Positions 60,739 through 63,477 are shown, numbered from the stretch's first letter. The stretch is 64,000 bases of DNA from Bdellovibrionales bacterium (GCA_023299885.1 JALZUS010000012.1:206-64205), one strand, 5' to 3'. Notes: generated by a model from the sequence alone, not told the origin. Program-made: numbers and translations.

Positions 60739-60756
60739 TACAGACCATAGTCTGTA
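60739..60756. promoter_or_regulatory. 7-4-7 palindrome, operator candidate upstream of the XRE regulator
   Basis: TACAGAC-cata-GTCTGTA, about 90 nt upstream of the ATG at 60848. Confidence 0.35.
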
Positions 60757-60847
60757 CAAATAATTGCTACAAATAAATCATCTCATTTAATATGCTTTTA
60801 CTTTGAGCGATAAATAAGATTTATTTTACATATTTCATACATAAAAT

Positions 60848-61180
60848 ATGCACAATAGTTTTCTTGATATTGAGAAGCATTTCTTTGATAATAAAAAAAT
60901 GGTAACTCAATCAACTCAACAATTTAAAAAACTCGGCAAGCTGTTTAAGTCAAATAGAGAGAAAAACGGCATCACTCAAAGACAAGCTTCTGAAAGATTA
61001 GGATACAGCTCACCGCAGTTTGTATCTAATTTTGAGCGTGGCTTATGCGCACTTCCACTTAAAAAAATTAAAGTTTTAATTGAACTTTATGAAATGGACG
61101 CTAATAATGTGGCTAATATTATAATTGATTTTCAGGCTAAAATGATTAGAAAAAACTTAATGGTTTCTAAATCAGCTTAA
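60848..61180 (+). CDS. XRE-family helix-turn-helix transcriptional regulator
   Basis: GITQRQASERLGYSSPQFVSNFERG (HTH_3-type). Confidence 0.75.
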   Translation: MHNSFLDIEKHFFDNKKMVTQSTQQFKKLGKLFKSNREKNGITQRQASERLGYSSPQFVSNFERGLCALPLKKIKVLIELYEMDANNVANIIIDFQAKMIRKNLMVSKSA

Positions 61181-61281
61181 TAGCTATACCAAAAGCTATG
61201 TTTTAAATAAAAATCTAGCAAACATTAAATAATATTTATTTGTTGTCCGATAGGCTTCTTGTAACATTACAGGAGGTTTTC

Positions 61282-62034
61282 TTGATTAATTTAAGGCTCG
61301 TTATTATTGATGAACCTATACATGTTGACGACCCTGAAGCCTGCGAGCTCTGGAGAAAAGCAATATGGTCTAAAGAAAAAGGCTACAGAAATCACTATAA
61401 AAGCACAATAATACCTGCCGGAGCTGACGACTTTATCGCTACACACCTTATTGTAGCTGACCAAAAACCTTCAGGGGAAATGATCCCTGTCGCTATGTAT
61501 AAGTCTCTTAGGCTATCACAAAGCTTAAAGTTTAATTTACCATTTGGAGCCCTTCAACTACTTAAAGGGACTCAGTACGAAAACTCTCGAGTTGTTAACT
61601 CACTAATAAAAGAAAATGGAGATATCTCATATGATTCATCTTGGACCATTAACCCTACCTACAAAATTAGCTCTAAATTAAGCCTAACAATAAGAGATTG
61701 CATGACAACATTAGCATGTAATTACCACTTATCTTTTGGCTTTAGTAGATGGATTGCTGCCGGGTCAAAACAATACAAAGTAGACCAGTATCTAAAGTGG
61801 CTGGGATGCGAAGAACTACTCCCCGAATTCAGCCTATCTATAATTGATGGTGCAGAAGTACAGATGATGTATCACCCAAATACAAAAAACCAAAATGAAT
61901 CCGTTTTAAGAGTAGCCGAAAAGTACCAATACCTATGGGATACAAGAATTTTATTTAAACCAACAAGCAATGCTACCGAAAAAGTTAACACTACCAATGA
62001 AAATAAAATAATTACTAAGAAAAAAGCAGCTTAA
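61282..62034 (+). CDS. hypothetical protein, weak resemblance to LuxI/FeeM-type GNAT-fold acyl synthases
   Basis: TTG at 61282 lies 6 nt after AGGAGG. WRKAIW..KGY…ADDFIATHLIV…MYKSLRL parallels the LuxI R..F…W…E.D.fD…R pattern. By eye only. Confidence 0.3.
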   Translation: MINLRLVIIDEPIHVDDPEACELWRKAIWSKEKGYRNHYKSTIIPAGADDFIATHLIVADQKPSGEMIPVAMYKSLRLSQSLKFNLPFGALQLLKGTQYENSRVVNSLIKENGDISYDSSWTINPTYKISSKLSLTIRDCMTTLACNYHLSFGFSRWIAAGSKQYKVDQYLKWLGCEELLPEFSLSIIDGAEVQMMYHPNTKNQNESVLRVAEKYQYLWDTRILFKPTSNATEKVNTTNENKIITKKKAA

Positions 62035-62043
62035 GGAGCTAAC

Positions 62044-62703
62044 ATGAAAAAAGAAGACTTCAAAAAAAACTTTGACCACTACCAAAAGCAAGTCTGCCAA
62101 GCTGTAGAAGAGTTTCCATGGGAAAATAAAGATGCTTACGCAAAATGGCTTGCTGACACCTATCACTATGTCACAAACTCAACACGTATTTTGGCTCTTG
62201 GAGCTGGAGTTATGCCGCAGCATCATACTTTATTTTCTAACCGATTTATTAAACACGCAGCAGAAGAGACAGGACATGAGCAACTACTTACAAGAGATAT
62301 TAAATCTTTAGGGTTTAATTTTAATACCGTTAGTGTTTCTACAGAAATGAAAGTCTTTTACCGCTCACTTTATTATTGGATTAGCCCTGCTGGAAACCCT
62401 GTGGGTCTACTCGGATGGATCTTAGCTTTAGAAGGTTTAGCCACTAATGTAGGAGGCTTTGCAAACCAACTCGCTGCAAAAAATCATACCAATAAAGCCA
62501 CTAATTTTTTAAGACTTCACTCTGATGAAGACCCCGAGCACCTAGAAAAAGCGCTTCAAATAACAAATATGCTTTCTGAAGACGAACTAGCTATAGTGAA
62601 TGAATCTATGGAATTCTATAGCCTACAGTATATAAATATTTTAAAAGCTATAGAAAAAAGTAGCCTAAAGAGTACTGAGATACTTCACAGGCAAGCAGGC
62701 TAA
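62044..62703 (+). CDS. heme-oxygenase-like fold iron-containing redox enzyme (HDO/PqqC/CADD-like)
   Basis: AAEETGHE (E..H) and LHSDEDPEH (H-x3-D-x2-H), consistent with diiron ligand sets. About 219 aa, helical. Confidence 0.6.
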   Translation: MKKEDFKKNFDHYQKQVCQAVEEFPWENKDAYAKWLADTYHYVTNSTRILALGAGVMPQHHTLFSNRFIKHAAEETGHEQLLTRDIKSLGFNFNTVSVSTEMKVFYRSLYYWISPAGNPVGLLGWILALEGLATNVGGFANQLAAKNHTNKATNFLRLHSDEDPEHLEKALQITNMLSEDELAIVNESMEFYSLQYINILKAIEKSSLKSTEILHRQAG

Positions 62704-62730
62704 ATATATCTAATTTATAATTTGCCATCA

Positions 62731-62766
62731 AAAAACCCCTTAGATATAAGCGTTTAAGGGGTTTTT
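62731..62766 (+). terminator. 12-bp hairpin plus T-run ending 1 nt before the next start codon (terminator or RBS-sequestering attenuator)
   Basis: AAAAACCCCTTA-gatataagcgtt-TAAGGGGTTTTT, then ATG at 62767. The AAGGGG SD lies inside the 3' arm. Confidence 0.6.
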
Positions 62767-63477
62767 ATGATTAAAGAACAATATAAATCAAGTACTCAAT
62801 TTTATAATAAATTTAAAATTATCACTGAATCTATTTCAAATAATTTTAACGATCACGGACTTAGCACTAGTCCCTATAGGCTTTCTGCTTTAGACACCTT
62901 TAACGAACTGTCAGATACACAAAAACAACAGTCAATTATTGATGGGGAAAAGTATTTAAACACTCAAAGCTATGCCAAATCTATGGGATGGACCGCTAAA
63001 GATGATATGCATTTTCTATGGAGCTCTTTTAAAAAATTAGGAATTAAACCAGCATCTGATTTTTTTAATTATATATCAAAAAATGACGCTATTGAAATTT
63101 ACAATTTAGACGGCATCCAAACATGGAGAAATCTTAGTTTTATGGAGATTTGCAATTACACAATAGAAGAAATGTTTTGCTATCCGTGGGAACAACGCTA
63201 TACAAGAAATAAAAAGGCATCAGAAGAAGCTCAAAAAACTATTGAAAAGCTTTTCATGCAAAGCACACCGAAAACTATCCAATGTAATATTCATAACATA
63301 CTTACAGAAACATTAAGCCTAGAAAAGTATATAATAGATACACTTCACAAAGCTGTTTCTATTATAACTGACGAAAATGGTACCCCTGTCGGCTTTGCTG
63401 TTAGCTCTAAGGTAAAGGTGATTGGTGCAGTTGATAGCCGTCCACACAACAAAAGACCAACTCTCACAATTGTATAA
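62767..63477 (+). CDS. hypothetical protein with a PAS-like segment
   Basis: DAIEIYNLDGIQTWRNLSFMEICNYTIEEMFCYPWEQRYTR resembles a PAS core. By eye only. Confidence 0.3.
   Translation: MIKEQYKSSTQFYNKFKIITESISNNFNDHGLSTSPYRLSALDTFNELSDTQKQQSIIDGEKYLNTQSYAKSMGWTAKDDMHFLWSSFKKLGIKPASDFFNYISKNDAIEIYNLDGIQTWRNLSFMEICNYTIEEMFCYPWEQRYTRNKKASEEAQKTIEKLFMQSTPKTIQCNIHNILTETLSLEKYIIDTLHKAVSIITDENGTPVGFAVSSKVKVIGAVDSRPHNKRPTLTIV

Follow-up and report, generated by a model that had tools for sequence, protein, structure and literature searches.

A recurrent four-gene cassette of Bdellovibrionota with a GNAT-fold enzyme, a heme-oxygenase-like oxidase, a PAS-fold protein and an XRE regulator: a candidate small-molecule production-and-sensing circuit

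We analyzed a cassette of four co-oriented genes, called here g1 to g4, carried by a 64,000-nucleotide stretch of DNA from a Bdellovibrionales bacterium (GCA_023299885.1 JALZUS010000012.1:206-64205; "the window" hereafter means this whole stretch). An earlier reading made from the sequence alone, referred to below as the original prediction, had described these genes as an orphan set encoding an XRE regulator, a LuxI/FeeM-like protein, a heme-oxygenase-like oxidase and a PAS-like protein, and had proposed a small-molecule system. All the features described for the four genes are present in the sequence, and the gene combination, which had not been recognized then, was not found described in the searchable literature. 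Our favored explanation, to which we give a probability of roughly 45%, is that the four genes form a self-contained circuit, specific to Bdellovibrionota, which makes and senses a small molecule. The folds of the gene products and the conserved co-location of the genes support the reading as a small-molecule system; the product may act as a signal rather than as another kind of secondary metabolite.

Loci were collected from a look-up of g2 homologs and from a scan of GTDB species genomes with a g2 alignment (A1) as query, and were mapped with profiles of all four families; they are designated here by L numbers. Wherever g2 shares 40% identity or more with that of the window, the locus also carries g3 and g4, and in all cases but one g1. 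A reciprocal metagenome scan from g4 led again to g1 and g3 on every contig of sufficient length, and revealed three further lineages in which a more divergent GNAT, with an E value of ~1e-4 against the wide g2 profile and an -AA end, stands beside g3. With g2 and g4 each taken as an anchor of its own, 12 independent cassettes were found to hold all four families (the window, L001/2/10/20, L003/4, L005/6, L011/21, L012, L013, L014, L015, L023-25, L027 and L029/30); as the set recurs in at least 12 independent loci, the term orphan does not apply to it. The genes are co-located in related genomes, and the placement of g2 and g4 in the folds originally proposed for them was upheld, as described below.

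The gene order is far from fixed, with at least eight different arrangements across the 12 loci. The order of the window (g1>g2>g3>g4>) is shared with L003, whereas g2>g3> <g4<g1 is found in L001, L005 and L014; L013 shows g1>g3>g2>g4>, L015 shows <g1 g2>g3>g4>, g4 is duplicated in L012 and the remaining cassette loci have other orders. The flanking genes are unrelated from locus to locus. Since the genes have stayed together through so much rearrangement, we consider them functionally linked. When g1 and g4 lie on the strand opposite to the enzyme genes, they are always adjacent and co-directional, and where the pair converges on the enzyme genes it is co-operonic. Correlations of pairwise identity (mirror-tree analysis) were 0.86 for g2-g3, 0.75 for g3-g4, 0.60 for g1-g4, 0.55 for g2-g4 and 0.23 for g1-g2. 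Together, these correlations and the gene orders point to two sub-modules, an enzyme pair g2-g3 and a regulator pair g1-g4, and the regulators diverge faster than the enzymes (mean identity 0.33-0.34 versus 0.47). Across the loci, no transporter, exporter, resistance gene or Fur-type element belongs to the conserved set, and no relatives of g2 and g4 were found in viral contigs (IMG/VR).

Two observations on the cassette as a genetic unit can be added. Over window positions 52000-64000 the GC content drops, being 0.38-0.43 upstream and 0.32-0.37 in the cassette and its immediate neighbors; taken with the unrelated flanks elsewhere and a DDE transposase that abuts the L003 cassette, the low GC content is a hint that the cassette moves as a unit. 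Only the receptor-type gene g4 duplicates among the four families: its two copies flank the enzyme pair in L012 (3804-4568 and 6336-7055) and stand in tandem after g1 in L026 (888-1640 and 1680-2390).

The putative synthase gene g2 starts with TTG 61282, placed 5 nt past an AGGAGG ribosome-binding site (61271-61276); the database gene call and the N-termini of homologs agree with this start. Compared both as a single protein and as a family profile, g2 gave nothing significant against Pfam, NCBIfam, PADLOC, PHROGs and the sequences of the PDB. Matches to PDB "dTor" entries were discarded as repeat-protein artefacts, with no stretch passing alone. A word-indexed search returned 18 relatives, all unnamed or "hypothetical", one of them from a Bdellovibrionota metagenome-assembled genome, and an exhaustive profile search returned 611 clusters at 50% identity, 528 of which score below 1e-10. 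All clusters of the family consist of single-domain proteins of ~240-270 amino acids (aa). Tests at the family level were made on 150 representatives (alignment A4), and none of these matched a curated family in Pfam or NCBIfam. For Autoind_synth, in the same two databases, g2 showed no match at E<=1 and none of the 150 members did at E<=0.1. The hidden Markov models (HMMs) of FeeM and Acetyltransf_5 (PF21926, PF13444) gave no match to g2 itself, and a single member of the 150 at E=0.09-0.098.

The fold was more informative. An AlphaFold2 model of g2 built on the family alignment reached a predicted local distance difference test score (pLDDT) of 89.4 and a predicted template modelling score of 0.85, with a disordered tail at residues 231-250. 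When this model was compared with the PDB by Foldseek, the matches were, in order, FeeM (2g0b), BjaI (5w8g) and LasI (1ro5), with E=2-4e-6 and template modelling scores (TMt) of 0.56-0.68; the best of them, FeeM, had E=2.3e-6 and TMt 0.68. All three are N-acyl synthases that depend on acyl-ACP or acyl-CoA. Generic GNATs (NAA60, AAC(6') and the AtaT/KacT toxins) followed close behind. The residues invariant in the g2 family are K31, G34, Y35, D50, H55, Y117 and G175. The acetyl-CoA motif A (Q/R-x-x-G-x-G/A) was not found in g2 and is not conserved in its family, where it occurs in 17 of the 150 members at scattered, mutually unaligned positions. The claim that g2 is LuxI/FeeM-like stands, then, as far as a GNAT fold nearest to FeeM, BjaI and LasI is concerned, but membership by sequence was borne out neither by the HMM searches nor, for LuxI, by hhalign. 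By modelled fold and by sequence, g2 represents a new GNAT family and is a member of neither the LuxI nor the FeeM family.

The protein ends in ...ITKKKAA (62014-62031), and is alone in this among the 59 open reading frames (ORFs) of at least 150 aa in the window. An -AA ending is present in 101 of the 150 family members, typically as K/R-x-AA, and a final A in 126; the -AA tail is also common to the divergent GNATs of L023, L027 and L029 and to some g3 orthologs, whereas the regulators lack it. Its resemblance to an ssrA-type ClpXP degron suggests proteolytic control of the synthase. Among seven LuxI-family proteins (alignment A9, see below), three end in -AA (TraI-type) and five in A, which may be a parallel to the tail of the g2 family, or a coincidence.

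The ATG of g3 (62044) lies 9 nt past the stop codon of g2, and the two genes appear to be closely coupled in translation. As had been proposed, g3 belongs by sequence to the heme-oxygenase-like iron enzymes. It matched PF14518 ("iron-containing redox enzyme"; 44.9 bits, cutoff 28.9, 1.5e-11), its nearest solved relative is the uncharacterized structural-genomics protein 3dde (E=2e-12), and the acetylenase MboA was a faint second match (E=0.1). Eight residues are invariant in nine orthologs (H71, E74, E75, H78, E130, H159, D163 and H166). They fit the ligand set of 3 His and 3 or 4 carboxylates known for the heme-oxygenase-like dimetal oxidases (HDOs), although the part that each would take in the metal site is predicted from the sequence. 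The HDOs form a superfamily of over 10,000 proteins, about a dozen of them characterized, and these mostly use fatty-acid or amino-acid substrates (PMC13108848).

A first database search with g4 returned only g4 itself. However, the unnamed genes of ~230 aa beside g2 homologs proved to be g4 homologs with 26-39% identity, sharing the conserved core GIQxWRNxxFMEVCSYTLEEMFCYPWxxRYxR, which we take to line up with the generic PAS S1-box segment. No PAS HMM of Pfam matched any of 10 members of the g4 family at E<=1, and NCBIfam, PADLOC, PHROGs and the PDB sequences likewise gave g4 no significant match. In the AlphaFold2 model, residues 107-223 follow the order beta-beta-alpha-alpha-alpha-beta-beta-beta, and essentially all of the ~50 top Foldseek matches are PAS, LOV or HIF-ARNT PAS-B domains (E from 5e-4, TMt 0.63-0.69). 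The PAS-like core foreseen for g4 is thereby retained as a fold of the C-terminal ~115 residues in a moderate model, and not as an HMM match. On this modelled fold g4 is a candidate ligand sensor, one without an output domain. A LOV/flavin reading was set aside as the NCRFLQ-type flavin motif was not seen by inspection, in spite of the many LOV domains among the Foldseek matches, and a Cas8a/Csx9 match, below the cutoff and present in only one of 10 members, was dismissed as chance.

The XRE helix-turn-helix (HTH) nature of g1 was confirmed by scores over the Pfam gathering thresholds of both HTH_31 (28.8 bits, cutoff 27, 1.5e-6) and HTH_3 (27.3 bits, cutoff 23, 3.9e-6). The true start may be ATG 60899, giving 93 aa, because its homologs have this length. 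Such homologs adjoin the cassette in other loci. The protein also bears a weak resemblance to antitoxin HTH models. The palindrome noticed upstream of g1 is indeed there, in the sole exact copy of the 64 kb, and could serve as an operator. Palindromes with 7-bp arms and different sequence occur at -109 to -122 nt of g1 in the window, L003 and L013; their kept position is compatible, if only weakly so, with operators that co-evolve with their regulators.

We looked at the regulatory elements between the genes. A CCGA[T/A] box stands 30-67 nt before the first enzyme gene in nine of the 12 cassettes, whereas 14 of 139 control ORFs, long ones taken from these loci, have it (P = 1.8e-7, binomial), and L005, L011, L012 and L015 show the arrangement TTAA[N]-N15-17-CCGA[T/A]. 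The promoter motif before g2 in the window matches the sigma28/FliA consensus of the attack phase in B. bacteriovorus, TTAAG-N16-CCGATA, identified in 92 of 140 attack-phase promoters (PMC3627812). A search of both strands of the 64 kb gave two matches to the full FliA-type motif, where 1.26 are expected by chance. The second (61955-61981, + strand, TTAAA-N16-CCGAAA) falls inside the 3' end of g2, ~63 nt before the g3 start, and from its position could be an internal promoter of g3 or a chance match. An imperfect inverted repeat with 18-nt arms (CTAGCAAACATTAAATAA / TTATTTGTTGTCCGATAG, 72% complementary, 61215-61253) spans the promoter before g2 from -35 to -10, and is a possible repressor site overlapping it; in L001, L003 and L013 the CCGAT box is closely preceded by CTAG-containing elements.

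The hairpin before g4 in the window has perfect 12-bp arms (62731-62742 and 62755-62766) and a folding energy of -21 kcal/mol (z = -5.6), with none of 200 shuffled sequences folding as well; its flanking A-run and U-run make it resemble a bidirectional intrinsic terminator. Hairpins that enclose the Shine-Dalgarno (SD) sequence just before g4 were found in all four co-oriented loci (window, L003, L013 and L015; z = -5.6, -4.5, -5.7 and a weaker -1.4). Their 3' arm holds an SD-like purine run, the structure being kept and the sequence not. The proposal that g4 is gated by a hairpin therefore agrees with stable predicted structures in each of these loci. The hairpin over the ribosome-binding site (RBS) of g2, on the other hand, is not conserved, since, of the corresponding regions, those of the window and L012 alone show significant folding. 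Because of the FliA-type promoter before g2, g2 and g3 are probably a separate attack-phase transcription unit, and with a terminator-like hairpin also lying between g3 and g4 the four genes are probably not a single operon; the arrangement suggests two transcription units plus g4.

Features of the cassette in the window and the basis of their assignment
Feature	Position	Strand	Description
g1	60848-61180	+	110 aa; small stand-alone XRE HTH protein; Pfam
g2	61282-62034	+	250 aa; GNAT-fold enzyme of an uncurated family; AlphaFold and Foldseek
g3	62044-62703	+	predicted heme-oxygenase-like dimetal oxidase (HDO); PF14518, PDB 3dde
g4	62767-63477	+	236 aa; helical N-terminal region, predicted C-terminal PAS fold; AlphaFold2 and Foldseek
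Palindrome TACAGAC-cata-GTCTGTA	60739-60756	.	divergent spacer upstream of g1; candidate operator
Sigma28/FliA-type promoter TTAAA-N17-CCGATA	61225-61252	+	motif match; ends 30 nt before the g2 start codon
Hairpin, 12 pairs	61252-61279	+	encloses the AGGAGG RBS of g2; window-specific
A-run/stem/U-run hairpin	62727-62771	+	g3-g4 gap; encloses the SD-like AAGGGG and AUG of g4

The family of g2 reaches well beyond the cassette. Its distant members lack g3 and g4, and in seven of nine sampled loci they adjoin XRE-HTH proteins of ~295-310 aa with an N-terminal HTH, two of which carry a sub-threshold C-terminal signature of the small-molecule-binding V4R domain. Other enzymes stand beside the family genes. 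Methyltransferases of class I occur in L009, L016 and L017 and alpha/beta-hydrolases in L009, L017, L037 and L038, while L038 also has an acyl-CoA dehydrogenase and L019 a ketoacyl synthase with an acyl carrier protein (ACP). The acyl-CoA dehydrogenase and the ketoacyl synthase/ACP neighbors point circumstantially to an acyl substrate, and the variety of enzymes and regulators indicates that the logic of synthase, tailoring enzyme and regulator recurs with exchangeable parts. All taxonomically labelled carriers are Bdellovibrionota, among them Bdellovibrio, Bdellovibrionales, Bacteriovorax, Halobacteriovoraceae, Pseudobdellovibrio exovorus JSS and "Bdellovibrionota bacterium FG-1". P. exovorus JSS (L018, CP003537.1 318306-329073) has a gene of the wide family at 5001-5768 (WP_015469044.1), convergent with that of a 302-aa HTH protein with a weak V4R match; being a cultured and sequenced predator, it offers an experimentally tractable entry point.

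According to our favored explanation, g2 would most likely transfer an acyl chain from acyl-ACP or acyl-CoA to an amine acceptor such as an amino acid, and g3 would tailor the substrate or the product with the use of O2. The g2-g3 pair would be transcribed from the sigma28/FliA promoter, of the type that drives the free-swimming attack-phase program in Bdellovibrio, and the -AA tail may render the synthase short-lived. The g4 protein would bind the product or a related cue and then modulate g1, which has no sensor domain of its own, at palindromic operators, so closing a feedback or density-sensing loop. The hairpin before g4 could terminate the g2-g3 transcript and occlude the RBS of g4, adding a gate on g4 production. 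The folds, the kept metal ligands, the shared location and co-evolution of the genes, the promoter motif and the hairpins are the observed part of this scheme; what donates and what accepts the acyl chain, which enzyme acts first, the binding of the product by g4, the interaction of g4 with g1 and the signal role of the product are what we infer.

Several points weigh against this explanation. The circuit as a whole is read from sequences and models, and the assignments of g2 and g4 are made at the level of predicted folds. In the Foldseek list of g2 the generic GNATs have E values of 6e-6 to 1e-5, so that FeeM and the LuxI proteins are barely better, and the TM-scores are of ~0.5-0.68. For a profile-profile comparison we aligned LasI, whose sequence matched annotated lasI at 100%, with six annotated N-acyl-homoserine lactone (AHL) synthases encoded on plasmids, L031-L036 (alignment A9). 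The invariant residues of this alignment (LasI R23, F27, W33, D44, D47, R70, E101, S103 and R104) recovered the classic set, yet hhalign between A4 and A9 was not significant (probability 0.67%, E=0.084); its register is topologically sensible, and only the D-x-x-D segment and the Ser of beta4 align, tentatively. The model of g4, made from an alignment of four sequences, has a moderate mean pLDDT of 62, with residues ~90-225 at 70-89. O2, redox state or light can also be the cue of a PAS domain, so g4 may not bind the product, and its action on g1 is likewise conjectural. The palindrome sequence of the window was not found in the other cassette loci, so the operator sequence is not conserved. 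Finally, a pathway-specific regulator beside a biosynthetic pair is equally typical of non-signaling secondary metabolism.

The alternative that survives best is possible though in our judgment unlikely: a compact biosynthetic cluster for a non-signaling secondary metabolite, in which g1 and g4 respond to O2, redox or iron and not to the product. The compound could be an amphiphilic metal chelator, the HDO N-hydroxylating an amine and the GNAT N-acylating it to give a hydroxamate, or it could be an antibiotic or a prey-directed lipid-like compound. The completion of hydroxamate siderophores by a GNAT N-acyltransferase is established biochemistry and speaks for the chelator, as does a bufferin metallophore operon beside the cassette of the window. 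The O2/redox sensing common among PAS domains agrees with such a cluster, and expression in the attack phase suits a prey-directed compound. N-oxygenases and metallophore-pathway enzymes are found among the HDOs (PMC13108848). TonB-system genes adjoin four of the 12 cassettes: a receptor in the window, where the original prediction had placed a TonB-receptor region upstream, a TonB_C protein in L001, a receptor with TonB-ExbBD in L005 and a TonB_C protein at the contig end in L021. This link is inconsistent, however, since it is absent in eight of the 12 loci, the genes differ between loci and in the window the TonB-dependent receptor belongs to the heme/hemoglobin subtype. Neither an exporter nor a resistance gene or Fur-type element recurs with the cassette, the regulator pair is as strictly kept as the enzymes, and it is the receptor-type gene that duplicates. 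Moreover, the wider family keeps an HTH regulator with a ligand domain and varies the tailoring enzyme, which is more typical of signal/receptor pairs.

An improbable alternative is the remodelling of membrane lipids, tuned to the attack phase, in which an OlsB-like g2 would make an aminolipid and g3 would hydroxylate or desaturate it. OlsB, which makes lyso-ornithine lipid, is an N-acyltransferase of the Acetyltransf_5 group related to FeeM, and the fold of g2 is related to those of FeeM-type N-acyl synthases. The fatty acids and amino acids that make up most of the known HDO substrates, the ketoacyl synthase with ACP by one family member, the acyl-CoA dehydrogenase by another and the FliA-type promoter would all be in keeping with a lipid product. 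Yet there is no significant Acetyltransf_5/FeeM match (one of 150 members at E = 0.09), no second acyltransferase of the OlsA type is conserved alongside, and a dedicated sensor/regulator pair, a degron-like tail and a patchy, rearranged distribution would be uncommon for the housekeeping synthesis of lipids.

A type II toxin-antitoxin module of the AtaT-AtaR or TacT-TacA type, or a defence pair, with g2 as a GNAT toxin acetylating aminoacyl-tRNA, g1 as its antitoxin and g3 and g4 as passengers, is very improbable and was rejected: an XRE gene does stand directly upstream of the GNAT gene in the window, AtaT and KacT are among the Foldseek matches of g2 and g1 is weakly like antitoxin HTH models, but g2 has 250 aa as against 157-180 aa in the GNAT toxin chains matched by Foldseek and lacks a conserved motif A, the g1-g2 spacer of 101 nt holds a promoter, g1 shares an operon with g4 more often than with g2, the co-evolution of g1 with g2 is the weakest of all pairs (r = 0.23), g3 and g4 are kept with g2 in every locus, and PADLOC gives nothing for g2, g3 and g4 beyond the chance-level Cas8a match.

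Compared with known systems, the cassette shares with the LuxI/LuxR AHL systems (LasI, BjaI, TraI) a small GNAT-fold synthase beside a dedicated regulator, the two being inherited together. It differs from them in that g2 shows no Autoind_synth match or significant profile-profile similarity, that the LuxI hallmark residues cannot be aligned to it with confidence, and that no LuxR-type autoinducer-binding receptor is present, so that sensing would be split between the PAS and XRE proteins; in addition, the cassette has an obligatory HDO partner and a sigma28-type promoter. FeeM and NasY, the long-chain N-acyl amino acid synthases from soil environmental DNA (2g0b), are GNAT-like and, as g2, lack the acetyl-CoA motif A. 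Fee-type clusters also hold tailoring enzymes beside the synthase, which is a further likeness. In contrast to FeeM, g2 has ~60 additional residues and an extra helical segment (residues ~78-110), it is paired with an HDO and a sensor/regulator pair, and only one of 150 members of its family grazes the FeeM/Acetyltransf_5 HMMs (E ~0.09).

With the HDOs UndA, BesC, SznF, AetD, MboA and CADD, g3 shares the PF14518 family and the His/Glu/Asp ligand set, whereas no characterized HDO is near it in sequence (MboA, E = 0.1). PAS-type sensors act as receptors for non-AHL molecules in the PAS4-LuxR solos PluR and PauR of Photorhabdus and in VqmA of Vibrio, with biosynthetic genes nearby; there the PAS domain is fused to a DNA-binding domain, and the synthases are ketosynthase-like or Tdh. 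The cassette resembles these systems in having a PAS-type domain as the presumed receptor for an endogenous non-AHL small molecule, but its PAS (g4) and HTH (g1) are separate polypeptides and its presumed synthase is a GNAT with an HDO. No conserved association linking an HDO to a GNAT of the FeeM/LuxI fold, a PAS protein and an XRE protein came up in the literature searched. To combine a synthase with a tailoring enzyme and a cognate regulator is a known logic; what appears to be new are the g2 and g4 families, the GNAT-HDO partnership, the split PAS plus XRE regulator and the putative control by FliA.

A broader proposal, which we put forward tentatively and consider rather doubtful, is that the g2 family comprises the signal synthases of an unrecognized, lineage-specific cell-cell communication in predatory Bdellovibrionota. 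Such a system would have a LuxI-fold core and swappable tailoring, by an HDO in the clade of the window and by a methyltransferase, an acyl-CoA dehydrogenase or a hydrolase elsewhere. Its receptors would be the split PAS plus XRE pair here and fused XRE-V4R-like proteins elsewhere, FliA would turn production on in the attack phase and the ssrA-like -AA degron would allow a quick turning off. A comparison of 87 Bdellovibrionota genomes revealed no homologs of AHL synthases, and its authors speculated on unknown quorum-sensing factors (bioRxiv 10.1101/2020.11.01.364414). If the proposal were true, a phylum in which AHL synthases are reported to be missing would have its first endogenous quorum- or kin-sensing system. 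The analysis itself provides several testable objects, namely a large uncurated enzyme family with the fold of signal/N-acyl synthases, a new conserved HDO partnership, a candidate split PAS plus HTH receptor and a link to the FliA attack-phase regulon. We know of no self-made signal in Bdellovibrio-type predators, a group under study as living antibiotics. Should the product be a signal, it would give a handle on the sensing of predator density; if it is a metabolite, it would represent new HDO chemistry on an acylated substrate.

The surroundings of the cassette in the window also agree with the original prediction, which had located it between a TonB-receptor region and an operon for a ribosomally synthesized and post-translationally modified peptide. 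The downstream operon (window 63481-64000 and beyond; L040 12200-14261) is convergent with the cassette and of the bufferin type, with a BufA1 precursor (PF10048), an MbnB_TglH_ChrH/DUF692 protein and HvfC_N; it was not seen beside the cassette in the other genomes examined. On the other side, between the heme-type TonB receptor and the cassette, lies a pair of paralogous genes for proteins of ~217 aa (59311-59961, + strand; 60021-60677, - strand). The two proteins match each other with E ~1e-9 to 1e-10, neither has a Pfam family, and both show signal-peptide-like N-termini and a common C-terminal RKYC-x-KKGSD-x-PPT motif; they may be accessory proteins of the receptor. Elsewhere, a distant g2-like gene (6001-6738) and an HTH/V4R-like regulator gene were observed in a metagenomic contig of 43.6 kb (L007, JGI 3300068438) among phage-like genes, which encode LPD22/LPD13 large polyvalent-protein domains, an NlpC/P60 hydrolase, DUF3799 and an Acb2/Tad1-hairpin anti-defence protein.

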